Assembly (NCBI GenBank): GCA_964442455.1
Contig: CAYTZB010000005.1
Span: 5,152-69,151, forward strand
DNA: 64,000 bases
Source of the DNA: an uncultured Gammaproteobacteria bacterium
GTDB lineage: Bacteria; Patescibacteriota; Microgenomatia; UBA8517; JACQJR01
Reading direction: 5' to 3'
Shown here: piece by piece, positions 31,432 through 60,015 of the stretch
Numbering within the stretch: the first letter of the stretch is position 1
Layout of the letters: every line of letters begins with the position of its first letter
The notes under the pieces: generated by a model
What the model was told of the DNA's origin: nothing
What the model saw: the letters and a program-made list of their open reading frames with translations, nothing else
The model's database searches: none
Translations under genes and position numbers: made by a program

Positions 31432-32427
31432 TCACAATATACTTCCTCTTTGAGTAATAAATAACATCATTCCTATACTTACCAAAAACCCGAAGTGTGC
31501 TAGATGCCTGGCTCCAATGCGTACCACTCGTGTCTCCAAAAGCGCCACTGCGTCAAAAACAAGAACAAGAAGGAGCATTCCCACTATAGTCATCCCCACA
31601 TTACGTTGGAGAGAGAATGGCGAAATAAGGGTGATGCCCGCTGCTGCTGCCAGCGGTCCCCCTGAAGCTGGAGTAGGAAGAGCAGCAACGATAGCAGCAG
31701 GGGTTGGCTGTGCCTGGGAAGAGGGTGTAACCGTTGGCGAGATAGATGCCTGCACGGTCGAAGGGACTGCCGTTGGCGCCACAGAGGGTGTCGGTTGAGG
31801 TGTTGATACAACTGGAGTGGGTTCTGTGGAGTTTTGAGCTACCTGTATGGGTGCACTACTTCCAAGCCTTGTGCCTAAAAGCTGGACAACAATGGTAGTA
31901 GGCTTTCCGCTCAGCTCGCCTTGCACCACCGCAATACCAATATCCTGATATTTTCCTGAAAGCATGTTATCTCTGTGTGTCGGGGACGCTATCCACGCAT
32001 TGACCACCTGCTCGGGCGAATCAAAGTCCCGCGCCAAGTTCTCTCCCGCATACCGATACTCGTAACCCGAACTAAGAAAAAATGTCCATGGCGTGGTCCC
32101 GTCAGGCGCCACGTGTGCCCAGTATCCTTTTGCAAGCATATCTTGCCCTTTTGCTGCCGCGGCAGATGAGAGCGTCGGGTCGAGCCGAAGAGAAGAGAAA
32201 CCTGATTGTGCCCGTTTTTGATTGGTGAGCTCGACTAACGCTTGCACAGGAAGTGAAGTAGCGGTTAATCCTAGAACTCTCGCAACATGGGTAGGCACAC
32301 GCACGACATATAACATAAGAAGGACACCCGCTATAACAAAAAGAGAAGAAGAATGTAAAATCTTAGCCTTAAAATTATTCGCGTGAGAGGGAAGCAAAAA
32401 ATGGGCAAGGATGGCAGCAGCGCTCAT
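31432..32427 (-). CDS. CAP/SCP/PR-1-like domain protein with an N-terminal TM anchor, a Pro/Thr/Ser-rich linker and C-terminal TM segments
   Basis: 331 aa. 'LVELTNQKRAQSGFSSLRLDPTLSSAAAAKGQDMLAKGYWAHV...GENLARDFDSPEQVVNAWIASPTHRDNMLSGKYQDIGIAV' is a CAP domain (YkwD-like). The GC-rich part of the gene (31590-31800) encodes the PTPS linker. Confidence 0.6.
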   Translation of the reverse strand: MSAAAILAHFLLPSHANNFKAKILHSSSLFVIAGVLLMLYVVRVPTHVARVLGLTATSLPVQALVELTNQKRAQSGFSSLRLDPTLSSAAAAKGQDMLAKGYWAHVAPDGTTPWTFFLSSGYEYRYAGENLARDFDSPEQVVNAWIASPTHRDNMLSGKYQDIGIAVVQGELSGKPTTIVVQLLGTRLGSSAPIQVAQNSTEPTPVVSTPQPTPSVAPTAVPSTVQASISPTVTPSSQAQPTPAAIVAALPTPASGGPLAAAAGITLISPFSLQRNVGMTIVGMLLLVLVFDAVALLETRVVRIGARHLAHFGFLVSIGMMLFITQRGSIL

Positions 32428-32566: not shown

Positions 32567-34816
32567 ATGCAAATTAAGGTTAAACAGGTATATAATAACG
32601 CCATGAAGCAAAATACCCTCTTTGAGATTAAAACACCCCGCGCAGGGAAAGAAACACCCGAGCAAGCTGCGACGGTATTTTCCGCACTCGCTTCCCAGCG
32701 GCCAACGCTCCTTTCACGGCTCACTGGAAGGCTAAAACCGTTCTTTTTTGAAATCGCAGGGTTTGACCAATCCATCCACTTTTACGCCAGCGTTCCCCAA
32801 GAAGTCGGCTCGTATTTTACTTCGCAACTTACCGCACAATATCCCCAAGCGCAAATTATCCCCGCTACCGACTACCTTACCTCTTTCCCACAAAATGAGA
32901 ACGAGGTAGCTCAACTGGCTCTTGCCAATTATTCTTATTATCCGCTGAAGGCCTGGCGAGATGTAGGCGAGGATACCGACCCGCTCTCCCCGGTGTTGGG
33001 TGTACTGGCAAACCTTAACGCACAACAACGTGCGTTGGTACAGCTAGTAGTGGTACCTGCGTCTGCCTCATGGCAGGAGAGAGGACGGGCATTCTTAACC
33101 ACTGGAATACAAACTCCTGAAGGAGGAACACGAACTCACCCCAAAGCCGCACTTGTTGAGCGCAAATTAGGAGCGAGCCAAGCGTTTGTAGTAGGAATAC
33201 GACTGCTTGTGCACGGAGAAACAAAAGCCGATGCCCAGGCTCTTCTGGGAAACCTGACTGGCTCGTTTGGTGCTTTTTCCCTAGGTGAGGGAAATGCGTT
33301 GGTGGTAAGTAATCCCTTCTTCTTTCGCAAGAAGCAGCTTGAGGGGTCAATAATAGCTCGTCTACCCAAACCCCTTCCTCAGGGAAATATCCTGACCGTT
33401 GACGAGCTTGCAACACTTTGGCATCTTCCGACAGAACCGCTGTCTAGAATTCCCACTATATCCTGGGGAGGAAAGCTCATGAGCGAGCCACCGGAAAATT
33501 TGCCCATTGGAACCTCCCAAGAGAAAGATGAAATTAACTTTTTTGCAAGAGCGGATTTTAAGGGAAAACCAACAGTATTTGGAGTGAAACGAGTGGATAG
33601 ACGCCGCCATATGTATCTGATTGGAAAAACAGGCACCGGTAAGTCGACCCTCATTGCCAATATGGCAATAAACGATATGCGAAATCGAGAGGGAGTAGCG
33701 GTAATTGACCCCCATGGGGATTTATCCGATATTTTGCTTGATTACGTACCTTCATTCCGCATTAACGACATTGTTTATTTAGACGCTGCGGACCGTAACT
33801 ACCCGTTTCACCTAAACTTGTTTGAGGGAGCAGAAAGTGGGCAACATGACTTAATTGCCTCGGGTATTGTGGCAATTTTCTACAAACTCTACCATTATTC
33901 GTGGGGACCTCGACTTGAGTATGTATTCAGAAATGCTATCTTAACGCTGCTTGAACAACCCGGCTCAACGCTTGTTGATATACCACGCCTCTTAACCGAC
34001 CGCGGTTTTCGGGAGAAGATTGTCTCACAAAGTAAAGACCGGATACTTGTCAACTTTTGGAAAAAAGAGTTTGAGGGAATGGGTGAAAGACTGCAAGCCG
34101 AGACAATCTCCCCAATTCTCAATAAAGTTGGACAATTTGTCTCTTCTCCGCTCATTCGCAATATTATAGGGCATCCGCGCTCAACAATTAACTTAGGAAA
34201 AATTATGAATGAAGGGAAAATTTTAGTCCTCAATTTGTCACAGGGAAAATTGGGAGAAGACAACTCATCACTTTTGGGAGCAATGGTCGTTACCAAACTT
34301 CAGCTTGCTGCCATGGAGCGAGTGAATGTTCCGGAGAGCGAGCGGCGGGACTTTTTCTTGTATGTTGATGAGTTTCAAAATTTTGCCACCACCTCATTTA
34401 TCAAGATTCTCTCTGAAGCACGAAAATATCGGCTGTCTTTAGTCCTTGCCAATCAATATATTGCACAAGTCCCTGAAGATGTCCAAAAGGCAATCTTAGG
34501 CAATGTTGGTAGCTTGGTCTCGTTCGTGGTGAGTGCGCAGGACGCGCACGTTTTGGCGCAAGAATTCGGCGACGTGTATAAAGAAGAGGACTTAGTCGCG
34601 CTTGATAATTGGCAAGTCGTTGTAAAAATGGCAATTGAGGGGAAAACTTCCCGTCCCTTCGTAGCCACCACTCTGCCACTGCCTCGTTCACGCAACAAAA
34701 ACCGTGCAAAAATCATTAACGTATCGCGGGAACGCTATGCAAAACCGCTCACTGCTCACACCTCACAAGCTCATGCGGCTGAGGAAGTAGTTCTCTACAA
34801 AGCACAGAATCGCTAA
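32567..34816 (+). CDS. VirD4/TraD/TrwB-like P-loop ATPase (FtsK-HerA superfamily, T4SS DNA-binding-domain type) with no N-terminal TM anchor
   Basis: 749 aa. The Walker A is 'YLIGKTGTGKSTLIANMA' and the Walker B is 'FFLYVDEFQNF', followed by a C-terminal 'LVLANQYIAQVP'. The roughly 330-aa N-terminal region is soluble and novel. The true start is possibly MKQNTLFEI at 32603. Confidence 0.6.
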   Translation: MQIKVKQVYNNAMKQNTLFEIKTPRAGKETPEQAATVFSALASQRPTLLSRLTGRLKPFFFEIAGFDQSIHFYASVPQEVGSYFTSQLTAQYPQAQIIPATDYLTSFPQNENEVAQLALANYSYYPLKAWRDVGEDTDPLSPVLGVLANLNAQQRALVQLVVVPASASWQERGRAFLTTGIQTPEGGTRTHPKAALVERKLGASQAFVVGIRLLVHGETKADAQALLGNLTGSFGAFSLGEGNALVVSNPFFFRKKQLEGSIIARLPKPLPQGNILTVDELATLWHLPTEPLSRIPTISWGGKLMSEPPENLPIGTSQEKDEINFFARADFKGKPTVFGVKRVDRRRHMYLIGKTGTGKSTLIANMAINDMRNREGVAVIDPHGDLSDILLDYVPSFRINDIVYLDAADRNYPFHLNLFEGAESGQHDLIASGIVAIFYKLYHYSWGPRLEYVFRNAILTLLEQPGSTLVDIPRLLTDRGFREKIVSQSKDRILVNFWKKEFEGMGERLQAETISPILNKVGQFVSSPLIRNIIGHPRSTINLGKIMNEGKILVLNLSQGKLGEDNSSLLGAMVVTKLQLAAMERVNVPESERRDFFLYVDEFQNFATTSFIKILSEARKYRLSLVLANQYIAQVPEDVQKAILGNVGSLVSFVVSAQDAHVLAQEFGDVYKEEDLVALDNWQVVVKMAIEGKTSRPFVATTLPLPRSRNKNRAKIINVSRERYAKPLTAHTSQAHAAEEVVLYKAQNR

Positions 34817-37800
34817 TTATTCGCGGGGACGACGGGGCCAAAAAACCAAAGCACCAATAACTACTATAAGAATTACACCGAGGGCGAGTAAACGATTACC
34901 AGAAAGCCGTTCAAGTAATCCGCCCTGTTCTTCCCCAACAGGAGTTGGTGCCGCCGAAGGTGTCGGAGTTGCTTCTCCTCCCAAAATCTCACCCTCGCTT
35001 GGTTCTTCTTTCGGTAAAATCTTTACCTCTCCAACACCACCAGCAACTGCCCCAGTAGTCGTTGCGGCCGACGCCAGCACTGCTCCGGCGGTAACCTGTG
35101 CCTCTTGATCAGCAACTATGCCTGAGCCATTTCCTGCATGGTCAACTGCCCGCAGAGCGTAAAAGTATGTCTTTCCACTCTCAAGGCCAAAATTATCCCA
35201 TGACATTTGCTGGTCAGGTGCTCCTCCTACCTCTCCCACTTTAGTTCCCCCATCAGCTGTAAACTCCGGTTTATCCGAGCGGTAAATAAACACTCTGCTG
35301 AAATCAGAATCGCCCGGGTTTTTCCAGAAAAGACGGTAGCTTGAGTCAGAAGGTCTTTCCTTCCTGTACTCTTGAACTCCTGATGGTCCTGAGTGGTCAA
35401 AATTTGTATTGGTCTCGTCAGCAGAAGTATCCGCTCCGCCAGTCACCTCAACTCGAAAGATATATTTCCCTTGACCGTCATAGAAATCAGCGCCTGTTAC
35501 CAAAACTTTATTGGTTGCGCCAGTTGTTGAGGAGTTAACCAAACTTCTAAATGTTCCACCATCCTTCTTGACGAAGAAGTTGGCTGTTACAGAATCGCCC
35601 TCTATGTCAAGCGCAGTATAGGAGATGTAGAAAGTATCTGTATTGGTGTAGGAAGGCAAGTCGAGTATATCAACGGTCACTGCCGCTTTGGCTGGCGAAA
35701 CCTGTGCAACAAATATGAAGAGCAACAGTACAACTACGCTACCCAAAAACTTTTTCCAAAGACCACTCTTTTTTGCTCTTCCTTTTCTTCTTGGTGCAAG
35801 TGCCAGGCCGAGGCGTCTCAAACCAAATCCTGCTCCCAAGAGGAAGCCAACATATACAAGCCAGACAGTATTAGCACCGGCTGCCGGAAGTTCTGTTACT
35901 GCAGCAAGCACTTGTGGCTGGTGAATATCGTATGAGATGAAGACACCCTTTCCTATCGGGACCGATGAACGGACAATATTACTTTGGAATGTGTCACTTC
36001 CCGTACCCTGGGCAAAGGCAAGGTTTGTGTGGGTACCGGCATGAATATCACTTGCAATAACCGCCTTATAGGTAACAGTCAAGGATGCAGTGCCAGCAAT
36101 ATCTCCAAGATTATTCCAGGTTAAGATGTTGCCTGAGACTGAGTCGGGGTCAGCAGGCGTTCCTGTCAAAGGAATAAATGTAAATCCGCTAGGCAAGACA
36201 TCAACTAATCTGACATCATGCAGTGTTCCACCACCGGTATTGGTAATGACCAATGTATATGTGACCACATCCGAACCAGAAGCACTGGAGGTATGGTCAT
36301 TTGTCTTGGTAAGCGAAATGCCAGGAAGTAATTTTTGGTTGGTAAAGGTACAAGTGACACCATCTGTGGTCAAGTTCACAACAATCTCATTGGTAGTACC
36401 GCTTGTCTCGTCCGAACAACTCCAGGAAACTAAGCCAAATTCTTCTTGTAGGTCTTCTGAAATTGTATAGCTTTCGGTTGGTAGGGTGCGGGTTTGGCCT
36501 GTCGCAATATTCTGCTCAACACCTGCTATATCCCATGTCCAGTTAGTTGCGCCAATTATGTCTTCTTCATCATTCAAATCGCCGTCTCCATTTGCATCCA
36601 CGTTCTTGAGAACAGTCAAATCTCCTGTATCCCGCGCATTACAGAGAGTAATCTCGGCACTCTGGTCTTCTTCTACTGTTATGCTTGCTGGGAGTTCTGC
36701 ATTTTCTGGATCCTCACAAGTTCCTTCTCCCTCAAACCAACCAACGAAGTGGTAACCAAGAACATTATTTTCTGAAACATCGTATGTTCCTGTATCAAGG
36801 GGACCAGCACTTTCTCCCATTTCTCTTTCCGGTGTTTCCTCATCAATTCCCCAACGGAAGCCCAGTTCATTTGCTACATCATTATCGCCCTCAAAGCTAC
36901 CGTCACCGTTGGTATCTACTTGTTTATTGACTACGATTTCTCCAATATCACGGGTGTTTGTAATCGTGCAGGTTACATCCTCACCCTCATCAAGGATAAC
37001 TGTCCCACCAAGCACTTCTGGGCATTTCTCGTCTCCGGTAATTGATGTAAAGCTGTAACCTTCTAGCCCGTCCTCGTCAATTGCGATTGGAGTATTCGCA
37101 TCAACCTCGGTTGCAAAACCAGATAATACTCCTATGTCATCAACCAGGAGACCGAAATCGTCTGGGTCTGCATTCCCGCCAATAACTTCTTTAATAAGAG
37201 TAATTGTTGGAATAATATCATCGTTGGTTATGGTACAAGAGATATTTTCTCCTTCATCCAAGGTAACTGTTCCACCAAGAGTATTTGGACACTTAGCATC
37301 CCCTGTAATAGATACAAAGTTGTAGCCGTCAAGAACAGTCTCATTGATTGTGTGAGGTTGATTGGCAGAAACTTGGGTTGTGGAACCCGATAAGACAACG
37401 TTCCCATCTATTGTTGGGTCAAAATCGTTAGGCTGCGCATTACCACCGTTATTATTTACAACAACCTTAGTAAGTGTAATGGTTGGACCAACATCGTTGT
37501 TTGTGATAGTACACGTAATACTTTCTCCTTCATCAAGAGTTACAGTTCCGCCAAGAATTTCTGGGCATTTTGCATCTCCTGAAATCGAAACGAAGGAATA
37601 ACCTGTTAGTCCAACTTCGTTAATTACTATTGGGGTATTAGCGGAAACCGTGGTTGTAGCTCCGGACAAGACCGCTGAACCACCAACTGAAATTCCAAAA
37701 TCGTCTGAACCTGCATTACCTCCATTATCATTGATTACTTCCTTAATTAAGGTTATGGATGGAGCTATATCATCGTTGGTTATAGTACAAGTGACGCTTT

Positions 37801-40800
37801 CTCCTTCATCCAAAGTTACTGTTCCTCCCAACTGAGTGGGACATCCTTCCCCTGCTATAGAAACGAATTCGTAACCGGTTAAACCAGCTTCGTTGATTGC
37901 AACTGAAGTGTTGGCGTCAACTTCTATTGTTTGACCAGAGGTTACAGGAACGCCTCCTATTGTAAGTCCAAAATTGTTTACGCCGGCATTTCCACCATTA
38001 TCGTTGATTACGTTCTTGATAAGAGTAACTGTTGGACCAACATCATTGTTTGTGATAGTACAAGTTTTGGTCTGCCCAAAAGCAATCGTGCCTGAACAAT
38101 CCTGGGATAAGCTCTTGGTATAGCCTGAAACTGAATCCTCATCAACGCTGTAAGACCCGGCGTCCAGCGTGACTGTAGTTCCATTTTCATCACCTTGGAA
38201 CGAAGAGTCGCTTACATTGGTTCCGGTAACATTTATATTAAAGTCACTCGCAACGTTATCTCCGCCGTTGTTATTAATTACGTGTTTAATAACAATTAAT
38301 TGTGCGGATACCTGTTTGTTTGTTACGTAAACATTGAAAGTTCCACCGCTTGAGACTGTTACAACCCCTCCATCGCTTATTGAAACTAGCTGATAACCAG
38401 TTGGTGCTGTAGCTTCCGTTATAGTGTATGTACCGGGTCCCAAATCAGGGTAAGTTGCATCTGTTCCTTCTGCAATAGCCTTTGGAGTGCCTCCGTTAAG
38501 CAACGAAGTAAACTCTGTTGAATTTGAAACATCTGTAGTCCCATCTGTGCCAAGAACGTTTTTATGAACAATAATTTGAGCGTTTTGGAAGTTTACGAAA
38601 GTGAAAACGTAGTTGCTGCCGCTTGTTGCTTGACCAAAACTGTGGGTTGTATCGCCAAGATTTGTCCAGCCTCCCGGGGTCTCTTCTGAAACTCCGTATG
38701 TGTGCCCCGGGCCCAAGTTTGTCCATGTATAACAACCATCTTCTTCGGTTGTTTGAGTATCGCTTACTTGACTATCAACCAAAAGTTTAACGGTCCAACC
38801 AGATTTATTTGTCTGGTCACCCGTAGTTCCTATATCTCCATCAGCGTCTATTACCTTACAAGCTTTAACGCTTACATTCTTAAAGTTTATAAAGTTTTGC
38901 TCTGTAACACTCCCACCTGGAGTAAGGGTGACGTTCTTGAAAACTGCAGTTAACGCCGTCCAACCAGCTTGTAGAACTTCTTTTACTTGATAATAGCCAG
39001 GAATAATACTCGAGAAACTATATGAACCGTCTGAAGCTGTATTTATGGTTTGAGATAAGACACAGCCGGTAAAGTCTGAAGCACAACTCCAAAGCTCAAT
39101 CGCCCAGCCAATTAATCCTGTCTGGTCGCCGCTAGTCAATAGACTTCCATCTGTGTCCTCAAATTTAAATCCTGAAATAGAGCCTACATTTTGATAATTG
39201 ACAAACGTGATGATTAGATTTTGATTACTGGCAAGAGTTTGAGTTGTCCCATTACTGGCGTTTGTATCATTATCCGGGTTTATATTATTTAGGGTATAAC
39301 CTGCCGTCACTATTTCTGAAAATGTGTACGTGCCGGGGGCAAGGGTATAAACGGCATTAAGACCCTCGTGGAAATCTTTATTATCTCCGCCACCTCTTTG
39401 AACTACGAAATTTGTGCTATCCAAGACATCATTCCCATTTGGATCGCGGACGTCTTTAACAATGGTTACAATAGCGTTCTTTTGCTTGTTTGTACAAGTA
39501 ACAGTTATAGTTCCGTTGCTGGAAACGGTAACTTGAGCTCCGTCTCCGGGAGTTTGGTTTGCGTCCGGAGTACAAGAAACATAAGTGTAATTTGAGTCTT
39601 CTACTTCTGTAATCGAGTAGCTACCCGGATTAACAGGATAGCTAGCAGTCAGGGTTTCTGAGAAGCTTTGATTATTTGCCCCATTTAGTTGTGCTGTAAA
39701 GGCATGATTATCAGAAACATCCGAGCCATCCGGAGCACGAACATCTTTAACAACGTTAATGGTTGCTTTCTTTTGCTTGTTGACAACATTAACGGTTTGC
39801 TGCTCGCCAGGCCCAACAACAACCTGTGTACCACCAGCACCCGTGTCTTCGTCTGGTGTGATGCTTACCAAATCATAATCCGGATCAGGACTTTCAGTTA
39901 TTGCGTATGTTCCTGGGACAACCGTGAATACGCCGTTGTCACCCTCCCCAATTTGGTCTGACTGACTGCCAACATTGACTGTGAATTGATGTGTATCTGA
40001 AACCTCTCCGCCATCTGGATTAAGAACATCTTTAATTACTGTTATGGTCGCATTTTGCTGGCGGTTGACAACGAATACATCTGTAGTTTGTCCCGGAGTA
40101 ACCGTCACTTGGGCACCGCTTGTCCCCCCATCATTATCCGGAGTAATACTGAATAAGGCATAACCTGTTGGCGGGGTATCCTCTGTAATTGTGTGTGTAC
40201 CTGCGGTAATGTCAGTGTAAGTAAAAGTTTCCCCGTCGGTGAGGAATTGAGGATTGGCACTGTCTAGTCTGACCGTAAAGTTTTGAGAAGTATCGGTTAT
40301 CGCTTCACCATTTGGACCCTGAACATCTTTATGAACAATAATTGTTCCAGTGTTTAGGGCGTTATGAAAGGTACAAGTGGCGTTAGTTGGCGGTTTACCT
40401 GCGGCTACTGTGGCAGTAGCTGTCGAACCATTAAAGGTGCAACTTGTGCCAGTACCACTTGCAAACGTATAGCCTGCGGGGCCACTTTCGGTAACGGTGT
40501 AATTCCCATCAGGAGAAACATTGTTAATGGTCACAGAGTTTTGACCTGGAGGTATGGGGTAGACTGATTGCCCATTAATTGCCGGTGTAATGGTAAACGA
40601 CCACTGATCAGAAGTTGCGCTACCACTATCCACAATCTTGCTCAATGTAATCGAAGGTAACTGCAGTAATTGGTTGACTGGGATCGGAATATTTTCTTGA
40701 CCACCCTGGGCTGTTCTTATACTCATCGAAGAACCATTAAACTGACTTGCATCCAAACCCAGTCTGCCGCAGAAAAGCATGTAAACAGTATTATGGGAGG

Positions 40801-41974
40801 GAACATTCGACAAGATTACATTGTAATGACGCAAAGAATCGGAACTGCTAATTGGAGTTGTACCATCATTATTACCACCGAATGGACCCGAGACTGTTGC
40901 TGGCACCGTTCCACCACTACTTTTTACGAAGCTCGTGGATGATGTAAAGTCGCTACCAGGGTAGGAAAAATCATTTAAGTTATCAGCCGAGGATCGGGGA
41001 TTACCGCTTAACCCAGTCGTGATTTGTTCTAGATGGTCGATACCGATAACACTATTTTGGAAATCATACACAGGACTGACGATAATATCCCCATCAGTAT
41101 TGTCATTGTTTTTGACTTCAATCTCAGTCGGTATACATGCCCCTTCTGGATAGGCACCAACATTACCGTTTTTAAGTTCCCCTGTTCCGGTTGGCTGGCC
41201 ACTAACAAGACTATAGACGCCAGATAAGACAAAACCGAACATACTGATTGCCACTTTGTTGTCTGGAATAGTAGAATCCGTAAACGTGGTTGTTGCCAAA
41301 ACTGACGCACCCAGCAGTACTTCAACCAGATAGCTTCCCTGTTGTCCTTCGCCGCGGAGAGGGTATAGATAAATAAAGGAACCATTTTGGTCGGTTGTTA
41401 CCGTATCGGATGAACCTATATTACCTTCCGCATCTCGAACCTGCCCATCTGGCCAGGTTACACGAACAGTTAAGTTAGAATTTGTTGGGAAATTGGAACC
41501 GGTTATTGTAACTGTATCCGAAGGAGAATAATCCGCTTTGTCGGTTGAAAGAGAATAGTTAAGTTGTGCGCTTGGCTCGCTTTCTTGTTGTCCTAGATCA
41601 AGTTGAGGGGGCCCGGTAGTGGTTTGCGGACTTACATCGTTTGCTTGGACTAAGACCTCCCCTGAAAGAACGGGTGGTTCGGAATTGTCTGGTGTGGGAG
41701 TTGGTAACAAAACCTCAGGTGTTGCGGTAACTTGCGGTGTAGGCGTTAAGGAAGGATCTGGCGAAACCGTAGGGTCTGTCGTTTCACTCGTTATTGACGG
41801 TGAATCTGTTGGGGCTTCTGTCGGAGCAATTGTTGCTTCGGGGGTTGGTGTTGCACTTTCCGCAAAAACTACTCCCGGCGCCAAAAGAACCGGCGCCCAA
41901 GAATTAAGCAGTAGGGAGACCGTTGCTACTATAGACAAAAACTTAGATAGTCTTCGGCCAAGTTCTTTTCTCAC
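34817..41974 (-). CDS. Giant (2385 aa) secreted multi-domain surface protein. It has an N-terminal signal/TM, a Ser/Thr/Pro-rich stalk, tandem Cna-B/SpaA-type and DUF11-like beta-sandwich repeats (about 95 aa each), an internal LPAAG sorting-signal-like module, an FN3-like domain and a C-terminal TM anchor.
   Basis: Cna-B-like 'SDGSYSFSSIIPGYYQVKEVLQAGW' is present. There are four near-identical repeats 'VINDNGGNAG..DFG..VGG..VLSG.TT.V.AN....INE.GL.GY.F.SI.GD.KCP..LGGTV.LDEGE..TCTITN'. The FN3-like segment is 'YRLFWKNPGDSDFSRVFIYRSDKP...GKTYFYALRAVDHAGNGS'. The C-terminus is 'LLALGVILIVVIGALVFWPRRPRE'. Confidence 0.8.
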   Translation of the reverse strand: MRKELGRRLSKFLSIVATVSLLLNSWAPVLLAPGVVFAESATPTPEATIAPTEAPTDSPSITSETTDPTVSPDPSLTPTPQVTATPEVLLPTPTPDNSEPPVLSGEVLVQANDVSPQTTTGPPQLDLGQQESEPSAQLNYSLSTDKADYSPSDTVTITGSNFPTNSNLTVRVTWPDGQVRDAEGNIGSSDTVTTDQNGSFIYLYPLRGEGQQGSYLVEVLLGASVLATTTFTDSTIPDNKVAISMFGFVLSGVYSLVSGQPTGTGELKNGNVGAYPEGACIPTEIEVKNNDNTDGDIIVSPVYDFQNSVIGIDHLEQITTGLSGNPRSSADNLNDFSYPGSDFTSSTSFVKSSGGTVPATVSGPFGGNNDGTTPISSSDSLRHYNVILSNVPSHNTVYMLFCGRLGLDASQFNGSSMSIRTAQGGQENIPIPVNQLLQLPSITLSKIVDSGSATSDQWSFTITPAINGQSVYPIPPGQNSVTINNVSPDGNYTVTESGPAGYTFASGTGTSCTFNGSTATATVAAGKPPTNATCTFHNALNTGTIIVHKDVQGPNGEAITDTSQNFTVRLDSANPQFLTDGETFTYTDITAGTHTITEDTPPTGYALFSITPDNDGGTSGAQVTVTPGQTTDVFVVNRQQNATITVIKDVLNPDGGEVSDTHQFTVNVGSQSDQIGEGDNGVFTVVPGTYAITESPDPDYDLVSITPDEDTGAGGTQVVVGPGEQQTVNVVNKQKKATINVVKDVRAPDGSDVSDNHAFTAQLNGANNQSFSETLTASYPVNPGSYSITEVEDSNYTYVSCTPDANQTPGDGAQVTVSSNGTITVTCTNKQKNAIVTIVKDVRDPNGNDVLDSTNFVVQRGGGDNKDFHEGLNAVYTLAPGTYTFSEIVTAGYTLNNINPDNDTNASNGTTQTLASNQNLIITFVNYQNVGSISGFKFEDTDGSLLTSGDQTGLIGWAIELWSCASDFTGCVLSQTINTASDGSYSFSSIIPGYYQVKEVLQAGWTALTAVFKNVTLTPGGSVTEQNFINFKNVSVKACKVIDADGDIGTTGDQTNKSGWTVKLLVDSQVSDTQTTEEDGCYTWTNLGPGHTYGVSEETPGGWTNLGDTTHSFGQATSGSNYVFTFVNFQNAQIIVHKNVLGTDGTTDVSNSTEFTSLLNGGTPKAIAEGTDATYPDLGPGTYTITEATAPTGYQLVSISDGGVVTVSSGGTFNVYVTNKQVSAQLIVIKHVINNNGGDNVASDFNINVTGTNVSDSSFQGDENGTTVTLDAGSYSVDEDSVSGYTKSLSQDCSGTIAFGQTKTCTITNNDVGPTVTLIKNVINDNGGNAGVNNFGLTIGGVPVTSGQTIEVDANTSVAINEAGLTGYEFVSIAGEGCPTQLGGTVTLDEGESVTCTITNDDIAPSITLIKEVINDNGGNAGSDDFGISVGGSAVLSGATTTVSANTPIVINEVGLTGYSFVSISGDAKCPEILGGTVTLDEGESITCTITNNDVGPTITLTKVVVNNNGGNAQPNDFDPTIDGNVVLSGSTTQVSANQPHTINETVLDGYNFVSITGDAKCPNTLGGTVTLDEGENISCTITNDDIIPTITLIKEVIGGNADPDDFGLLVDDIGVLSGFATEVDANTPIAIDEDGLEGYSFTSITGDEKCPEVLGGTVILDEGEDVTCTITNTRDIGEIVVNKQVDTNGDGSFEGDNDVANELGFRWGIDEETPEREMGESAGPLDTGTYDVSENNVLGYHFVGWFEGEGTCEDPENAELPASITVEEDQSAEITLCNARDTGDLTVLKNVDANGDGDLNDEEDIIGATNWTWDIAGVEQNIATGQTRTLPTESYTISEDLQEEFGLVSWSCSDETSGTTNEIVVNLTTDGVTCTFTNQKLLPGISLTKTNDHTSSASGSDVVTYTLVITNTGGGTLHDVRLVDVLPSGFTFIPLTGTPADPDSVSGNILTWNNLGDIAGTASLTVTYKAVIASDIHAGTHTNLAFAQGTGSDTFQSNIVRSSVPIGKGVFISYDIHQPQVLAAVTELPAAGANTVWLVYVGFLLGAGFGLRRLGLALAPRRKGRAKKSGLWKKFLGSVVVLLLFIFVAQVSPAKAAVTVDILDLPSYTNTDTFYISYTALDIEGDSVTANFFVKKDGGTFRSLVNSSTTGATNKVLVTGADFYDGQGKYIFRVEVTGGADTSADETNTNFDHSGPSGVQEYRKERPSDSSYRLFWKNPGDSDFSRVFIYRSDKPEFTADGGTKVGEVGGAPDQQMSWDNFGLESGKTYFYALRAVDHAGNGSGIVADQEAQVTAGAVLASAATTTGAVAGGVGEVKILPKEEPSEGEILGGEATPTPSAAPTPVGEEQGGLLERLSGNRLLALGVILIVVIGALVFWPRRPRE
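35750..35900 (-). other. Internal sortase-signal-like module within the giant ORF: LPAAG, then a hydrophobic segment, then a basic patch RRLGLALAPRRKGRAKK. It is immediately followed by a signal-peptide-like segment KKFLGSVVVLLLFIFVAQVSPAKA-AV.
   Basis: Translated directly from the sequence. No stop codon or frame change occurs between the two parts. A sortase gene lies directly upstream at 42031-42681. Confidence 0.55.
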
Positions 41975-42030
41975 TTATAGATGGATACTATAAGCTTATC
42001 TTAATCAAATGTCAAGTTTTTTAATCCGAT

Positions 42031-42681
42031 TTAATCAATTGCTACTTTTTTTGAAATAACAATTAACCTCTTAAGTGTCGTTCCCGGAGGATAACAAGTT
42101 TGTAGAGTGAGCATTTCCTCTTTATTTTTGGTATTGCGAAGATATTTAATGTCCGCCGAAGGAACAACTTTTTTCTCAACAACCTCATATTTGAATCTTT
42201 CTCCTTTATAAAAAATATCAATCTCGTCTCCCTTCTCAAGTTTTCCGATAAGATAAAACACGGCGTTGTAGCGACCAACATTTAGGAAACTATCGGTTGA
42301 GTGAGCAAAAAGATAAACGTTTCCCTCCTCACCCGGCAAGGCAGTACCCTTTGCATGAGCTACGCCGCTCTTTAACACGGAAAGATATTCTGACTTGTTA
42401 AAGGGATTAACATTGGCAAAAACCGGTGCGTTGGCGGCAAGTTTGGGAATTACTATTCCAAAATCTGTGCTCGCGGGGGTAATTTGGCGGTCGGAGGAAA
42501 AGGGTTCAACTGAGTATTTTATCTGAAATAGTTCATTAATCTTATACCCAATTTCTTCTTTTATTGCCGGCCCAAAGGTAAAAATAAGCATTAAAACTGC
42601 ACCGACTATAAAGAGATTACCCAAAAACATAAGAGCTCGAGCCAGGAAAATAATTTTTCTGTTTTCAGCTTTAGTAGCCAT
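42031..42681 (-). CDS. Sortase (transpeptidase) with an N-terminal TM anchor
   Basis: His is in 'GNVYLFAHS', the catalytic Cys in 'LTLQTCYP' (TLxTC motif), and Arg in 'RLIVIS'. The ORF-track start (42933) overlaps galE by 263 nt. The internal ATG at 42681 (MATKAEN..., TM 'IIFLARALMFLGNLFIVGAVLMLIF') is preferred. Confidence 0.7.
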   Translation of the reverse strand: MATKAENRKIIFLARALMFLGNLFIVGAVLMLIFTFGPAIKEEIGYKINELFQIKYSVEPFSSDRQITPASTDFGIVIPKLAANAPVFANVNPFNKSEYLSVLKSGVAHAKGTALPGEEGNVYLFAHSTDSFLNVGRYNAVFYLIGKLEKGDEIDIFYKGERFKYEVVEKKVVPSADIKYLRNTKNKEEMLTLQTCYPPGTTLKRLIVISKKVAID

Positions 42682-43651
42682 TAGGATTTTGTTTATGCCA
42701 AAGATGGGCAGTTTTGACAATGGTTTCAAGATCAGAGTGTTTTGGTTTCCAACCAAGCTCTTTTTGAAGTTTTGAAGAGTCGGCAACAAGTTCTGCCGGA
42801 TCCCCTTCTCGGCGTGGGCCCACTTTAACGGGAAACTCACCCGCAACTTTTTTGACCATCTCAATAACTTCACGATTTGAATATCCTTGGCCGGTACCGG
42901 CATTATACGCCGCACACATTTGACCACTTTCAAGAGCCTTAAGTGCCAGGATATGTGCTTCTACTAAATCCAAAACATGAATATAGTCGCGGATGCACGT
43001 TCCGTCTTTTGTTTCGTAGTCGTCCCCAAAAAGAGTAAACTCGCTTTTCGACAACGCTGCGCGTATCGCAAGGGGGATGATATGGCTTTCGTTTTTATGA
43101 GCTTCACCCAGTGAACCATCTAACGCCGCACCTGCTGCATTAAAGTAACGAATACTAATTGAGTTTATCTTGTGGATTTGGTGGTACCAATGGAGTAACC
43201 GCTCAATCATCACTTTCGTCTCTCCATATGCGTTTGTAGGGGATTGCGGGTGCTCTTCTGGAATTGGGATTTTGGTTGGATTACCATATACTGCAGCACT
43301 TGAGGAAAACACAAACTTGCGTATACCTGACAGCGCGCATGTTTCAATTAAATGAAAACTACCCTCGACATTATTCTTAAAGTACTTTCCGGGATTCTGC
43401 ATTGATTCACCGGCTTGAATGAACGCGGCAAAGTGCATAACCGCCTCTATTTCATTTATTTGAATTGTCTTTTCAATTAATTGTCCTCCAGTTACTAAAT
43501 CTCCTTCTACTACCTTTACTTCTTTTGGGATTGCCTCTTTGTGGCCTTCTGAAAAATTATCAAACACCACAACAGAATGCCCTGCATCTTTCAAGGCACG
43601 AACCGTAAAACTCCCAATATATCCTGCTCCGCCGGTAACTAGAATGTTCAT
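42671..43651 (-). CDS. galE: UDP-glucose 4-epimerase GalE
   Basis: 326 aa. 'MNILVTGGAGYIGS', the YxxxK motif and the remaining sequence have the GalE profile. Confidence 0.85.
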   Translation of the reverse strand: MNILVTGGAGYIGSFTVRALKDAGHSVVVFDNFSEGHKEAIPKEVKVVEGDLVTGGQLIEKTIQINEIEAVMHFAAFIQAGESMQNPGKYFKNNVEGSFHLIETCALSGIRKFVFSSSAAVYGNPTKIPIPEEHPQSPTNAYGETKVMIERLLHWYHQIHKINSISIRYFNAAGAALDGSLGEAHKNESHIIPLAIRAALSKSEFTLFGDDYETKDGTCIRDYIHVLDLVEAHILALKALESGQMCAAYNAGTGQGYSNREVIEMVKKVAGEFPVKVGPRREGDPAELVADSSKLQKELGWKPKHSDLETIVKTAHLWHKQNPNGY

Positions 43652-43974
43652 ATATACACTGGTTCTACTGGCTTCTTCTCAACTTTTCTCCCATTAACAG
43701 GAATACCGAGCGTCCAACCCAGGGCATTGGCAACTGCTACCCCCACTCGCAGTCCGGTAAACGAGCCCGGGCCAGGATTTATCCTAATCGCACCAATATC
43801 GGCAACACTCAATTTCTGTTTTTTGAGTGCTTTTTCAATAAGGGGAAGGAGCGCCTGTGACTTCAAAAATTCGTTCTTCTGCTCAAAACTCACTTTTTTG
43901 CCATCAATCTCAAGCACCAAGCGCGTCCTCTCGCTTTCCGAGGTATCAATATATAATAATAGTGCTTTTCGCAT
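43648..43974 (-). CDS. tsaB: Short TsaB/YeaZ-like protein (tRNA t6A biosynthesis; N-terminal ASKHA half only)
   Basis: 108 aa. 'LLLYIDTSESERTRLVL...ALLPLIEKALKK..LSVADIGAIRINPGPGSFTGLRVGVAVANAL' matches the TsaB N-terminal domain. Confidence 0.55.
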   Translation of the reverse strand: MRKALLLYIDTSESERTRLVLEIDGKKVSFEQKNEFLKSQALLPLIEKALKKQKLSVADIGAIRINPGPGSFTGLRVGVAVANALGWTLGIPVNGRKVEKKPVEPVYI

Positions 43975-44049
43975 AGATGACTAGTTAACTGGTCAACTCC
44001 GTTAATTGTATCTTATTCGAGGCTAGGGGTAAAGATTAGGAATTGAAAA

Positions 44050-45075
44050 TTAGATACCTTGGTTATTGATGAAGTCGCAAACACCCATCATCAAAAGTAA
44101 TTGATTTCTTGTTGGATTTGTCAAAGTTACCCCAGTAGCTTTTCCTTCTATAGCAGTAATTACATCCCCTAAACTGACTGTTGGCCCGCTCAAACCCAAA
44201 TAACTGGCTGCCCCTGAGGGTAAACTAGATACATTATATATGTGAGCCAGTGATTTTCTTCCAGAAGCCACATTTAGACGCAGAGCTAGATATTGAGCTT
44301 TAAACTTTAGTGCACTACACGAACGTTGACTACCTTTACAACCGGTGGAGTTTTTAATTAGATTAACCAAACCTGTTGTATTAATACCGTAAGTAGTAGT
44401 TATGCCCAATTGAGGAAACCAATCATTGATTAACCAACCTGAATCGGTATTGATAGTTGATATCCACCCATTAATATCTCCTTGAGAATAAGTATTATGT
44501 CTATTCCAATTTCTCCAAAAACCAATTGTTCCTTCAAATTCCACTACAGAGCCAAAAGTTAAGTCAAAAATTACTGATTTGGCTTGAAACTCATTGCCAG
44601 CTCCTGGTGGAAAAGTTACCTTGAAATTATAAACTTTGTGTTCACTGGGGCCAATTAGACTAAGTGTCACTCCATCTATACTTATCGAATCATTGAAAAA
44701 ATCAGCCAAAGTCTTTGCCCCTGTTGGACTACCACTGCCATAAACAGGTGTTGACCCATCCTTAATAACAATATCCAAAACCGTTTCTAGTTTTGGATCA
44801 TCCCCCACACCTCCAGTTCTAATACCTTTGACTGCCACCAAAATAGCATCACTGCCACTGTTGGTTACATCAATGTCTCTGTCCTCCATATCCCCTGGAG
44901 TCATGTTCGTTACCACAAAAATCGGATCGCCTATAGGAACATGGAAATCAACAATTAAACTCCCAAATGCTTTCACTGTTGAGCTCTTAAGCGGGAATTT
45001 ATAAGCCGTCGCAAATACTACCAAAAATGCAGCGAGCGAAACTACTGTCAATATTCTCATTACATATTTTTTCAT
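44050..45075 (-). CDS. Secreted/cell-surface protein, hypothetical (N-terminal signal anchor; possibly SipW-processed)
   Basis: 341 aa. N-terminus is 'MKKYVMRILTVVSLAAFLVVFATAYKF'. Gly/Thr-rich. Sits directly downstream of the SipW-like peptidase. Confidence 0.35.
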   Translation of the reverse strand: MKKYVMRILTVVSLAAFLVVFATAYKFPLKSSTVKAFGSLIVDFHVPIGDPIFVVTNMTPGDMEDRDIDVTNSGSDAILVAVKGIRTGGVGDDPKLETVLDIVIKDGSTPVYGSGSPTGAKTLADFFNDSISIDGVTLSLIGPSEHKVYNFKVTFPPGAGNEFQAKSVIFDLTFGSVVEFEGTIGFWRNWNRHNTYSQGDINGWISTINTDSGWLINDWFPQLGITTTYGINTTGLVNLIKNSTGCKGSQRSCSALKFKAQYLALRLNVASGRKSLAHIYNVSSLPSGAASYLGLSGPTVSLGDVITAIEGKATGVTLTNPTRNQLLLMMGVCDFINNQGI

Positions 45076-45076: not shown

Positions 45077-46267
45077 TTAAATTCCTGGTGTCGGTGGATC
45101 TCGATTTACAAAATCAGCGTTCGTATTAGTGTCAATTCCATCTGGATCCCTTTCATGGGAAATTCCCGCTGACGTAGCCGCTGGAATCGATGGGTTTAGG
45201 CCATTAGTATTGGAGCCCCAGCTAATATGATCAACAATTAGCCCTGATGAAGGACAAACTCCACTTCTTAACGCTAGCTCATCATTATTGGCTAAGCCAT
45301 TACCAATTGATGATGGGGCAACAATGAAAACAACGCTGCCATCAGTTGGAACTGCCGTCCAAACCGCCCTAAACTCAGCTTCTGTGTGAGTAGAAACAAT
45401 CGCAAATCCATTTGAAGGTATAGAGGCATTGGGCATGTTGTCACAACTGGTGTTATCGGAAATAGACCAGTTGGCTAGACTCACAGCGGTACTTGTTGGG
45501 TTGTAAAGCTCGGCCCATTCTGAATCAGCTTCGCTACCAATTCGATGGGCTTGAGCAATTCGATAGTAGACTTCATTTATGACAATGTCATTAATACTCG
45601 GAAATTGTCCGGCAGTAAAAATATTATTCGTACTTGATCCGGAATTTGAGAAAAAGGCATGGGAGTTTTGGATAAATGAACCACTTATAATAAGGGGAAT
45701 AAGAATAACAAGACTATTTAAACTCACAGAAGGTGAAAATGAGCCTTGAGATTTCCCGCGTTGCCTTCTAATTTCTTTAAAGATATTTACAACTTCCAAA
45801 ACAATTACAAGTAATGCCGGGAAAATAACAAGAAGTGGAAAACCAATATTCGACTTAGTAAAAGCAAAAAGCCTTCCTATATACGGCAAGAGAAATATTG
45901 CTTTTCCGACAACCTTCTCTTCCGCTACTACTCCATTATCCGGCGCATTATTCGCATCTCCTTTTGTTTGATAAAACAATTTCCCCTCTTTTGTTTCAAC
46001 AGCAACAATTCTGTGTGTTGTAAGAATTTTGGGATCCTTCTCGCCTTTAAAGGCAACAATATCACCTTCTTTGTATAGTAGTAACCCTTCACCTTTGGAA
46101 TTGACGACCACAAGATCACCGACTTTAATCGTCGGTTCCATACTTCCTGAGCGAACAATCAATGCTTTATTATCAAACCAAGGAATGGCCACGAACGCCA
46201 ATCCTACTGCTACTATTACAAGCAGCACTGATACAACATAACTAATACTTTTTAAGAGCGTATTCAC
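45077..46267 (-). CDS. Archaeal/ER-type signal peptidase I (SipW-like) fused to a C-terminal lamin-tail domain (LTD)
   Basis: An N-terminal TM then 'IVRSGSMEPTIKVGDLVVV' carry the SPase I catalytic Ser box and 'GD'. The C-terminal 'INEVYYRIAQAHRIGSEADSEWAELYNPTSTAVSLANWSISDN' is an LTD signature (NEV.Y...EW.ELYN...L.GW.L.D). Confidence 0.65.
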   Translation of the reverse strand: MNTLLKSISYVVSVLLVIVAVGLAFVAIPWFDNKALIVRSGSMEPTIKVGDLVVVNSKGEGLLLYKEGDIVAFKGEKDPKILTTHRIVAVETKEGKLFYQTKGDANNAPDNGVVAEEKVVGKAIFLLPYIGRLFAFTKSNIGFPLLVIFPALLVIVLEVVNIFKEIRRQRGKSQGSFSPSVSLNSLVILIPLIISGSFIQNSHAFFSNSGSSTNNIFTAGQFPSINDIVINEVYYRIAQAHRIGSEADSEWAELYNPTSTAVSLANWSISDNTSCDNMPNASIPSNGFAIVSTHTEAEFRAVWTAVPTDGSVVFIVAPSSIGNGLANNDELALRSGVCPSSGLIVDHISWGSNTNGLNPSIPAATSAGISHERDPDGIDTNTNADFVNRDPPTPGI

Positions 46268-46364
46268 ATAACCCTTTCTTTCGACAATCGAACCTCCAAT
46301 CTATAACTTCAATCTAACCGCGCATCCCGAAGCCCTCCGGACCCTCCGGAGGGCTGTACGTGAA

Positions 46365-46967
46365 CTACTGTGACAGATTTTGATGACCTACAAACGTAAA
46401 CGTTTCTGTAATTGACTTTCCTTGGTAGGTATCATCTGCATCCTCATCAAACTCGAAGGTCAGACATAGGTATCTAGTTTCACCCGACACTATTGCCGAA
46501 AAAGGCAAATCAAGATCCGTTGTGTTCAGAGCAGCTAAAGTTGTAAAGCTACCAGTAATATCATCTGGATCATCGGCGCAGGTTGAAACGGAATCAATTT
46601 TAGCGGACGTGATATTCAATTGAGTAGCTAGATCTGGAGAACTTGAAACGGTCTCTGTTGCTCCTAAGTTAACTTCTGCAATATCGATCGAACCATCGTT
46701 GTGCATAGATACAAACCCAGAAGTAGTATCACCAGGTGCCATATCAGCATCTCCGAACGAGGCATCAATTGTGGCAGCAGGCGTTATGTCGTCGTCATCG
46801 TCTAGCAGAAGAACAAGATCACCACTAGCAAATACGTTGTCAGTACTTGTTGCTGTGCTTGAGAAAAACGCAAATGTTGAGCCGACAATTAATGCTCCTG
46901 CGGCGGCAATTGACGCAAGACTTAATGCAATTCGTGAATTAATTGCAAAAGGCATAATTTTTATCAC
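46365..46967 (-). CDS. TasA/camelysin-family-like secreted protein with a SipW-cognate-class signal peptide
   Basis: 'RIALSLASIAAAGALIVGSTFAFFSSTATSTDNVFASGDLVL' matches the SipW-dependent signal peptide pattern (...ALIGGGTFAFFSDTE.S.N.F.AG.L.L). The remainder is Asp/Thr-rich. Confidence 0.6.
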   Translation of the reverse strand: MIKIMPFAINSRIALSLASIAAAGALIVGSTFAFFSSTATSTDNVFASGDLVLLLDDDDDITPAATIDASFGDADMAPGDTTSGFVSMHNDGSIDIAEVNLGATETVSSSPDLATQLNITSAKIDSVSTCADDPDDITGSFTTLAALNTTDLDLPFSAIVSGETRYLCLTFEFDEDADDTYQGKSITETFTFVGHQNLSQ

Positions 46968-49686: not shown

Positions 49687-50583
49687 TCACTCTTTATCGG
49701 TATCAGTTAAATTTATAGTTTTTCTCTCTCTCATAAACACAATTGTCGTCCCAACAAGAAAACTTAGTCCTGTAATAATAAAGATTACAGGCAAAACAGG
49801 CAATTCTTTGAACCAACCGCCTATTTTTGTTTCCTCTCCTAGTGTCGGTGAAGGAGAAGAAGTTTGTCCCTCTTGCAAACCAAGTACAATTGGCTCTGAT
49901 GTTGGAGAAGGAGAATTTTTTGGGCTGGCCGTTGGCTTTGGCGTAGGAGTCTTTGTAGGAGTTGGAGTTTTGGTTGGGGTGGGAGTAGGTGTCTTTGTGG
50001 GCGTCGGTGCAAGAGTCTGCGAGGGGGTTGGGGTTGGAGAAGGAGTGGGAGAAGGTGTGGGTGTTTGAGGTATAGAGTTAGTCGATCCTTTAGTTGCAGT
50101 TTGTAAGATTGAGAATATCCCTGTACGATCAGGACTCCTCCCTATCGATATACCGTCACCAGGATTCGAAGTATACTGGTACTGATCAACAATCGCCCCA
50201 GAAGAATCAAAAAGCACCACATGATCCCATTCTCCGGCGCTGTTGGCACTGTTGTTTAAAAAGGAATCCATCTCTATAAAGGGGTATGTCGTGCTCGTAG
50301 TAACAAGATCAGCCAAGACTTTCTTGGTGCTACTCCCAGTATCGGTTGTAAAATCCGTATCGTCATCAAGCCAATAGGACTTTAAGAATTCAGCACTACT
50401 TGATGCATTATAAAACTCAACCCACTCAGGATTCCCATCAACCAAAAACTCATTTATCACCACCTGTGCAAAAGAATTCGTTGGGAAAACCAACCAAAGA
50501 ATAAAAAATAAACCTAAGGAGAAAACTGCTTTCGTTAAACCAAAGATAACTATATTCAATTTTGTTTTAATGTTTCGAAACAT
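49687..50583 (-). CDS. Lamin-tail-domain (LTD) cell-surface protein with a Pro/Thr-rich linker and a C-terminal TM anchor
   Basis: After the signal peptide, '[22 protein letters not shown]...YWLDDD' is an LTD. Then comes '(PTPS/PTKT)n', about 70 aa of low complexity, then '[24 protein letters not shown]'. Confidence 0.6.
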
Positions 50584-59325: not shown

Positions 59326-60015
59326 TTATAAAGGTGTTGCAGTAGGCGAGGCAGTTGGAGATGAAGTAGGAGATGCTTTGGGACTTGAGGTTGGGCTTGC
59401 TTTCGGAGTGGACTTGGGACTAGGAGACGGGGAAGGTTTCGGTGTCTGCCCCTTTCGGAGTCCCGTAATTATCTCTACATCTGCCCCTGAAGGCGCCCGT
59501 GTGGTTTGTTTAACACTCGTGTATGTATCTTCAAGCAGCGCTATAAGTTCATTTTTTATATCGTCAGTTACTGAACTCCCGATTGTAATTTCTGTTGCTT
59601 GATAGTCTTCTTTCCCGGCATTTCCAGCGTCCACATCGGTATATCCCACCGCTTTCAACTTGTCGCGAAGCAGTGCTGCCTCCCCTGTAACGCCCGTCCC
59701 GTTCAAAACCTTAATTTTTATTTCTTCTCTGTTAATGGGGGCTGGGGTAAGAATTGGTTCTTGTGTTGGAGAAAATAAAGGAGTAGGAGAAGGAGCGAGC
59801 TCATCTTTCCCGCCTCTTATGAAAAAGAAGGCACCACCCACTAGCGCAACAAGCACCACTACAACGAAGAGGGGGACAACAATATTACTTTTCTTCTTCG
59901 AATCCCGAGGGCCCAGGAAATCTTGTGTTCGGACAGGGGAGTCAATTACAGCAGTTTTCTCCTGCTCCTCTGTTTCCATCACGCGGAGTATACCCTTGTG
60001 AAAATTACTTGTCAA
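59326..60015 (-). CDS. LytR_C-domain (LytR cell-envelope-associated C-terminal domain) membrane-anchored protein with a Pro/Ser-rich tail
   Basis: A TM segment 'IVVPLFVVVVLVALVGGAFFFI' is followed by 'IKIKVLNGTGVTGEAALLRDKLKAVGYTDVDAGNA...YQATEITIG', which matches LytR_C. The tail is (SPxxSPTS)n. Confidence 0.5.
   Translation of the reverse strand: MTSNFHKGILRVMETEEQEKTAVIDSPVRTQDFLGPRDSKKKSNIVVPLFVVVVLVALVGGAFFFIRGGKDELAPSPTPLFSPTQEPILTPAPINREEIKIKVLNGTGVTGEAALLRDKLKAVGYTDVDAGNAGKEDYQATEITIGSSVTDDIKNELIALLEDTYTSVKQTTRAPSGADVEIITGLRKGQTPKPSPSPSPKSTPKASPTSSPKASPTSSPTASPTATPL

Follow-up and report, generated by a model that had tools for sequence, protein, structure and literature searches.

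Sortase signals are defined as C-terminal elements, and the locus described here raises the question of why such a signal should lie in the interior of a giant surface protein and what becomes of the polypeptide that follows it. The protein is encoded in a stretch of 64,000 nucleotides (nt) of contig CAYTZB010000005.1 (assembly GCA_964442455.1), the whole of which is referred to below as the window. As a preliminary description of this DNA had stated, its gene is a single uninterrupted open reading frame (ORF) of 2385 codons. It has a GTG start and is located on the minus strand at 34817..41974. The public record matching the region (GCA_016182755.1, JACPFY010000005.1) contains an identical gene call of 2385 amino acids (aa), and an independent Logan assembly reproduces the neighbouring sortase gene together with the beginning of the giant gene. 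For the reasons given below, we consider it rather probable that the ORF codes for a secreted polyprotein, the precursor of a fibre and its partner, from which sortase and signal peptidase would release a fibre linked to the cell wall and a membrane protein with fibronectin type III (FN3) domains. As judged from comparison with related sequences, it is part of a cassette conserved in Patescibacteria and consisting of a sortase, a giant fibre and a tandem-FN3 membrane protein.

The internal cell-wall sorting signal (aa 2029-2069; 35768..35890, minus strand, as are all further features of the giant) consists of LPAAG, a hydrophobic transmembrane (TM) segment of 19 aa, hereafter TM1, and then RRLGLALAPRRKGRAKK. 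Taken alone, this segment passes the LPXTG_anchor model TIGR01167 (17.9 bits versus a cutoff of 15.9). It is not situated at the extreme C-terminus, as 316 residues come after its basic tail, and the same holds for 59 cluster representatives of the family. No other ORF of the window has such a signal, and in about 500 kilobases (kb) of related loci all detected sorting signals lie within this cassette, each internal one being followed by 299-364 residues. In the related locus L005, an 86% relative, the signal is identical, and the ratio of non-synonymous to synonymous substitution rates (dN/dS) between the window and L005 amounts to 0.12 over aa 2029-2098, comprising the signal and the next TM segment, and to 0.094 over the FN3 pair further downstream, at a dS of about 0.4. 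This next segment, TM2 (aa 2070-2098; 35681..35767), resembles a signal peptide and ends in AKA|AV. The C-terminal TM segment noted in the preliminary description is indeed present (aa 2356-2383); however, it is not the anchor of the fibre, whose anchor signal is the internal one, but belongs to the fused partner protein.

The partner module itself continues behind TM2 with a tandem FN3 ectodomain (aa 2099-2300; 35075..35680), a disordered juxtamembrane linker carrying a conserved LPKEE...GEILG motif (aa 2301-2355; 34910..35074), and a third TM segment with a basic tail (TM3; aa 2356-2385; 34820..34909), identified by hydropathy and found again as a helix at residues 290-309 of an AlphaFold2 model. 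This model of the module comprises a TM helix, two beta-sandwiches, of which the second has a predicted local distance difference test (pLDDT) value above 90, a disordered linker with values below 50, and the C-terminal TM helix. In Foldseek its top 25 matches in the PDB are FN3-domain proteins, mostly tandem FN3 pairs, with a probability of 1.0. Since the Pfam model fn3 (PF00041) remains sub-threshold on the module (14.5 bits versus a cutoff of 25), its FN3 status is assigned from the fold, which agrees with the FN3-like domain recognised earlier except that there are two tandem domains rather than one. In the linker, G2328 is conserved in 99 and L2331 in 105 of 110 sequences.

A search with aa 1882-2385 revealed that the module also exists as a protein of its own, in the form of stand-alone proteins of 298-315 aa with their own methionine start and signal peptide, which over aa 2070-2385 show 34-46% identity and 24 invariant columns, and whose N-terminal signal peptides align with TM2. 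When 1.84 billion cluster representatives were searched exhaustively with a profile of the module, 297 of them matched at E <= 1e-30. The best 150 were inspected, and 113 of these match the whole profile in one stretch: 59 carry the module fused to the extreme C-terminus of proteins of 400-3052 aa, and 53 are stand-alone, some of which may be contig fragments. All 59 fused representatives share the order signal, TM1, basic loop (median net charge +5), TM2 and module. Fused forms are found in 13 species-representative loci from Woesebacteria, Microgenomates, Saccharibacteria, Dojkabacteria and Moraniibacteria, and in L001 and L005, which come from two independent assemblies with 86-87% identity to the window, the sorting signal is likewise continued by the module in one open frame. 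The public names of family members are "SdrD B-like domain-containing protein", "fibronectin type III domain-containing protein" or "hypothetical protein".

In the split loci L002-L004, L026, L027 and L028, the genes follow each other in the order sortase, giant (with SpaA, SdrD_B and CLIPPER domains) and module, and here a sorting signal (LPASG or LPAAG, and VLGAATGSPT in L026) with a TM segment and a basic tail forms the true C-terminus of the giant. The same split arrangement with LPATG is present in L008, and in L027 the wider synteny of the window is also reproduced. In the four split loci for which gene calls are available, the ATG of the module sits inside the sequence coding for the basic tail of the giant, in the +1 frame and with an overlap of 8-17 nt. 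On a quick neighbour-joining tree of 110 modules, 50 of them stand-alone sequences that start with methionine and have at least 285 aa, at least 22 fused-to-split changes are required as compared to 36.6 with shuffled tip states, a rough figure that points to repeated interconversion of the two states and is consistent with their functional equivalence. By these sequence comparisons the fusion is real, selected and common.

Further support for two processing events comes from the segments surrounding the loop between TM1 and TM2. A strict [AV]xA site follows TM2 in 47 of the 60 fused proteins, but TM1 and TM3 in only two of the 60 each, and it follows the true signal peptides of the stand-alone forms in 42 of 50. 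The topology of the fused proteins, as deduced from hydropathy, charge and the -3/-1 rule, conforms to the positive-inside rule throughout. Methionine is absent from the loop in 47 of the 60 fused proteins and present in 13, and in the window, as likewise in L001 and L005, the loop contains neither ATG nor GTG but only TTG codons, initiation at which would drop the basic n-region. It is from the order of signal and TM segments, the rate of [AV]xA sites behind TM2, the methionine-poor loops, the adjacent sortases and the positive-inside topology that the polyprotein is inferred.

According to this model, the N-terminal signal peptide would export a fibre of about 2000 aa composed of a Ser/Thr/Pro-rich linker, a macroglobulin (MG2)-like domain, a variable head, 15 CnaB/SpaA domains and a CLIPPER domain. 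Transfer would then stop at TM1, with the basic loop remaining cytoplasmic, and TM2 would act as an internal signal peptide that restarts export, leaving the two FN3 domains outside and anchored by TM3. The neighbouring sortase would cut within LPAAG and join the fibre to the cell wall, and signal peptidase would cut after AKA (aa 2098). Besides a TM hairpin that is discarded, this would yield a wall-bound fibre and a type-I membrane protein with the FN3 domains, the latter two being made in a ratio of 1:1 at one translocon and being equal to the products which the relatives make from two overlapping genes.

The motif at the proposed sortase site is not uniform within the family. In about 23 of the 60 giants, seen among P0049-P0112, as well as in L009 and L026, the sequence VLGAATGS[PE]T abuts TM1, an LPxTG motif is missing and a sortase gene is adjacent; VLGAATGS[PE]T may therefore be a variant, undescribed sorting motif or a docking element. 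A shorter motif, [VI]L[GA], typically in the form G[EQ]VLGA, is present in all 60 fused giants just upstream of TM1, and 54 of the 60 carry it a second time in the disordered linker of the module, with a chance expectation of 7% per sequence window. In the giant studied here the corresponding sites are QVLA (aa 2022-2025; 35899..35910) and GEILG (aa 2328-2332; 34970..34984).

Several observations weigh against processing of the kind proposed, in which both cleavages of the fused ORF are predicted ones. The fourth position of LPAAG is alanine and not the canonical threonine, the sortase fits no class, and the 13 loops with methionine imply that internal initiation may contribute in some lineages. 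The atypical motif and its position away from the C-terminus would suit a protein that is never cut, i.e. a giant adhesin with three TM segments in the membrane whose LPAAG segment is a mere TM hairpin. This is nevertheless regarded as unlikely, as the segment passes a curated LPXTG-anchor model, as the homologous position in the split relatives is a true C-terminal sorting signal, as a sortase gene adjoins the cassette in most loci, and as signal-peptidase sites are kept behind TM2 at the rate of true signal peptides. If, in turn, the module were made separately by internal translation initiation, read-through in frame would be incidental and the giant would functionally end at its sorting signal, which is compatible with the 13 loops where methionine is followed by basic residues in the manner of a signal-peptide n-region, and with translational coupling in the split forms. 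However, since most loops lack methionine and that of the window, like those of L001 and L005, lacks ATG and GTG, internal initiation cannot be the general route, and in the absence of a stop codon the full-length product would carry the module anyway; we therefore judge this explanation improbable.

A modification of the polyprotein model would be that the sortase ligates the fibre not to peptidoglycan but to the FN3 partner, resulting in a membrane tether via TM3 and the long linker. Pairing of fibre and module is obligatory and 1:1, 105 of 110 modules have retained K2205, substrate and partner linker have the [VI]L[GA] motif in common, and PamR has been proposed to tether a different Patescibacterial filament (bioRxiv 10.64898/2026.03.03.709456). 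Set against this, the N-terminal residue of the module after the predicted signal-peptidase cut varies among sequences, and most invariant module residues are generic FN3 hallmarks, so that ligation to the partner appears quite unlikely. As only a +1 frame change in the overlap separates the split from the fused form, it also has to be asked whether the long ORF arose by an error of assembly or sequencing through which two genes were joined, or contains a collapsed repeat array. Yet the same fusion is present in two other assemblies at 86-87% identity and under purifying selection as well as in 59 fused cluster representatives, and the repeats have no common DNA word longer than 17 nt and go unreported by Tandem Repeats Finder (see below), which renders an artefact very improbable. 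Finally, the SpaA-family domains, and class C as the best-scoring class among the class-level NCBIfam sortase models, might suggest a pilin polymerised into a covalent pilus by a class C sortase. This is hardly credible for a protein of about 2000 aa with a head-stalk-anchor layout which has no YPK pilin motif and indeed no [YFW]PK anywhere, in a window where no other ORF has a sorting signal and the sortase scores 63.6 against a class C cutoff of 160. The preliminary suggestion that the giant is a sortase substrate, either pilin or adhesin, is supported by its sorting signal, whereas pilin status was rejected because of the absent YPK motif and the sub-cutoff class C score.

The sortase gene to which the fibre would owe its wall linkage, and which had already been noted next to the giant, codes for 216 aa with an N-terminal TM segment and lies 56 nt upstream on the same strand (42031..42681). 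It matches PF04203 (83.9 bits, E 1e-23) and the general family model TIGR01076 sortase_fam (58.9 bits versus a cutoff of 39.35), and the catalytic residues can be read from the sequence as His in LFAHS, Cys in TLQTC and Arg in KRLIV. None of the class-specific NCBIfam sortase models reaches its cutoff, class C being the best, and the closest solved structure is 4d70 (E 3e-9). By tblastn, homologs with 36-56% identity adjoin the cassette in 12 related loci and a weaker match of 30% does so in L008; three further loci beyond these 13 have called sortase genes beside homologous giants. That the sortase is dedicated to the giant, as had been presumed, is in line with this recurrent neighbourhood.

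With respect to the fibre, the N-terminal segment (aa 1-38; 41861..41974), judged by inspection and a hydropathy scan, is signal-peptide-like, with a basic n-region, a hydrophobic core and the site VFA|ES. It is followed by a linker (aa 39-129; 41588..41860) of which 51% are Ser, Thr or Pro (Pro 21%, Thr 20%, Ser 10%), so that both of these elements of the original outline were recovered. The first head domain (aa 130-235; 41270..41587) is predicted to form an MG2-like beta-sandwich; its model has pLDDT values above 93 and matches 2p9r with a template-modelling score of 0.68-0.70, the head model being confident for aa 140-235 only, and the domain is common to 37 giants of the family. The second (aa 236-438; 40661..41269) is a variable segment and a candidate binding region that is without a Pfam match and is modelled with low confidence (pLDDT 22-58). 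A search for homologs of the head region returned two proteins, of which one, P0165, is a clear homolog of this second domain. Across the family the heads diverge widely and contain VWA, PKD or Cys-rich inserts, which fits a role of the head in determining specificity.

The stalk (aa 439-1882; 36329..40660) is made up of 15 tandem domains of the CnaB/SpaA type, which in Pfam match SpaA_2 with 157 bits (7 stretches, E 1.7e-46), SpaA_4 with 75 bits (3 stretches) and SpaA with 57.8 bits, and SdrD_B only weakly with 26.5 bits, i.e. below the cutoff of 29.7. Each of the 15 domains has retained a first-strand Lys, a Glu and a last-strand Asn without exception, and 78-96 aa separate the Lys from the Asn. 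Costa et al. 2025 (PMC12617251) give Lys/Glu/Asn as the isopeptide triad of the families SpaA_2, SpaA_4 and SdrD_B, and that of SpaA as Lys/Glu/Asp. The stalk domains are of the isopeptide type with their triads present, the bonds themselves being predicted, which supports the domain assignment made at the outset. That assignment, to Cna-B, SpaA and DUF11-type domains, also extends to the CLIPPER (DUF11/DUF7507) domain next to the stalk (aa 1883-2005; 35960..36328), which is matched over aa 1884-1999 by PF01345 (E 2.2e-10; 41.3 bits versus a cutoff of 24.6) and by PF24346 (E 4e-11). When the domain is aligned with 9IFR, its K1890 falls on the Lys of the isopeptide bond and the Asp of VRLVDVLP on the putative catalytic Asp, in a weak alignment (E 0.25) that does not include the Asn of 9IFR.

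Four of the stalk repeats, each of about 91 aa (aa 1316-1679; 36938..38029), had been singled out as near-identical and as possibly collapsed or expanded during assembly. They are in fact related at 58-70% identity in protein and about 65-74% at the DNA level, the longest exact word that any pair has in common there being 17 nt. As, in addition, Tandem Repeats Finder reported nothing in 34000..43000, collapse or expansion is not a realistic concern, and the repeats appear to be old and diverged.

What the fibre might do is suggested by its adhesin-like layout, in which a conserved N-terminal sandwich and a hypervariable head are followed by a long stalk with predicted covalent reinforcement and a wall anchor. 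A monomeric fibrillar adhesin that would bind a partner cell by its variable head is the most likely reading, and attachment to a host cell is a plausible candidate function. The strict pairing of fibre and module suggests a basal assembly or tethering factor, and the FN3 protein probably acts at the base of the fibre in one of these two capacities.

Taken by itself, the fibre would be an ordinary new member of a known group, isopeptide stalks and CLIPPER domains having been described before. With the LPXTG-anchored fibrillar adhesins (Cna, SdrD and SpaA-domain proteins; PMC12617251) it shares the signal peptide, the variable head, the CnaB-type stalk with Lys/Glu/Asn triads, the CLIPPER domain, an LPXTG-type signal with TM segment and basic tail, and the adjacent sortase. 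In contrast to these adhesins of Gram-positive bacteria, the signal of the giant is internal and is followed by a signal-peptide-like TM segment and a membrane FN3 protein of 290 aa, its motif is LPAAG (VLGAATG in relatives), it belongs to a Patescibacterium, and its sortase falls outside the defined classes. Sortase-assembled SpaA-type pili have SpaA-family domains and a neighbouring sortase in common with it, but the giant has neither a pilin motif nor a class C assignment, is a single subunit of 2000 aa, and is not accompanied by minor pilins in the window. What sets it apart is the proposed polyprotein architecture, with an internal sorting signal, a signal peptide and a partner protein, together with the conservation of this partner.

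The partner, for its part, recalls the Patescibacterial PamR, whose two FnIII domains are joined to a C-terminal TM segment and which has been proposed as the tether of the unrelated Pam pilus (bioRxiv 10.64898/2026.03.03.709456). The likeness, as far as architecture goes, consists in two tandem FnIII domains, a C-terminal TM helix and a gene encoded together with a surface filament. Pam pili, however, are built by donor-strand exchange with chaperones and not by sortase, and PamR is not fused to a filament subunit. Another lead, the essential adjacent genes SEML1_0890 (FN3) and SEML1_0891 (VCBS) of Wang et al. 2023, was dismissed, as their products of 195 and 565 aa are not this pair. In the literature on sortases of the candidate phyla radiation (CPR) or Patescibacteria, on internal LPXTG signals and on LPXTG combined with polyproteins, no description of the architecture or the cassette was found; CPR bacteria are known to encode sortase often, and Microgenomates to do so nearly universally (PMC6744442).

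For the precursor as a whole, there are analogues among viruses. The structural polyproteins of flaviviruses and hepaciviruses are resolved by signal peptidase at internal signal sequences, and they share with the giant the alternation of stop-transfer and signal sequences as well as the release of several products in fixed stoichiometry. They differ from it in being viral and processed at the eukaryotic endoplasmic reticulum, and in that one of the two cuts proposed for the giant is a sortase transpeptidation. To our knowledge, there is no bacterial precedent for such a polyprotein. A conserved internal sorting signal with a functional protein behind it would broaden the definition of sortase signals, and the cassette would indicate a natural route to two envelope proteins in fixed stoichiometry; a VLGAATG signal with its divergent sortase is also of possible use to protein engineers.

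Patescibacteria account for much of bacterial diversity and have a lifestyle of attachment to other cells, for which mainly type IV pili and, recently, Pam pili have been held responsible until now. With 297 representatives of its module, a hypervariable head and a very robust stalk, the widespread cassette is a testable candidate for host recognition. In its broadest form, which we put forward tentatively and hold to be rather doubtful, the proposal would be that of an undescribed, lineage-wide anchoring pathway of Patescibacteria. In such a pathway the fibre and the tandem-FN3 protein would be produced from one precursor or from overlapping genes and would be separated by a dedicated unclassified sortase at an internal signal, including the new VLGAATG-type motif, and the FN3 protein would be the obligatory partner, serving either as ligation acceptor or as docking or assembly factor that shares [VI]L[GA]. 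If true, this would be the first natural polyprotein resolved by sortase and possibly the main organelle of cell-to-cell attachment in epibionts of the Microgenomates type.

As to expression of the giant gene, a promoter-like site (TTGACA-17-TATAGT; 41987..42015, minus strand) occupies the gap between sortase and giant, and with 11 of 12 positions it is the best match to the sigma-70-type consensus in 34000..44200, a match to consensus only. Between its end and the GTG there are 12 nt, and a Shine-Dalgarno sequence cannot be seen ahead of this start codon, which suggests that the mRNA leader of the giant is very short or absent. An Rfam search of the window revealed no RNA family, and phmmer with the whole giant against the PDB sequences gave no match.

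Some peculiarities of the records themselves should be mentioned. The record titles of the metagenome-assembled genomes containing L005, L007, L008, L016 and L019 name Gammaproteobacteria, Bdellovibrionales or Pseudomonadales despite a Patescibacteria-type cassette, and these labels are probably wrong. The G + C content is 0.33-0.37 at 1..6000 and 60001..64000 of the window, compared to 0.39-0.48 in between. The matching NCBI contig stops at about position 32553, and synteny with L001 runs on past that point; the window may stem from a different or scaffolded assembly.

Among the neighbouring genes, a pair at 45077..46967 (minus strand), 3 kb upstream of the cassette, codes for a 396-aa protein with S26 signal peptidase and lamin-tail parts and, beside it, a 200-aa protein of the camelysin/TasA family (Peptidase_M73), and resembles the SipW-TasA fibre system. 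A second protein with a lamin-tail domain is encoded at 49687..50583, and signal-peptidase-like proteins (SipA) are required for some sortase pili (PMC4049620). The segment 47257..52326 (minus strand) contains genes for predicted secreted or envelope peptidases (M10 matrixin-like, S8 subtilase and M23) and then FtsX, and in L027 an M10 gene is likewise located beside the sortase. At 43648..43974 (minus strand) there is a TsaB/YeaZ-like ORF of 108 aa which covers model positions 1-90 of 212; as short forms of 101-108 aa are also present in L027 and L029, it would seem to be a truncated gene that is conserved, and not an error. On the other side of the cassette, a gene for a VirD4/TrwB-like coupling ATPase of 749 aa (TrwB_AAD_bind, DUF87; 32567..34816, plus strand) converges with the giant, the stop codons abutting without a spacer. 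A similar gene occupies the equivalent position in L001, and type IV secretion systems have been reported to be essential in Patescibacteria (PMC12857230). Finally, the synteny around the module that the window shares with L001 and L002-L004 includes genes for a CAP (cysteine-rich secretory protein) domain protein (31432..32427, minus strand, in the window; 3427..4392 in L001; 10997..12016 in L002), then an ORF of 81-85 aa and an RmlA-like nucleotidyltransferase.

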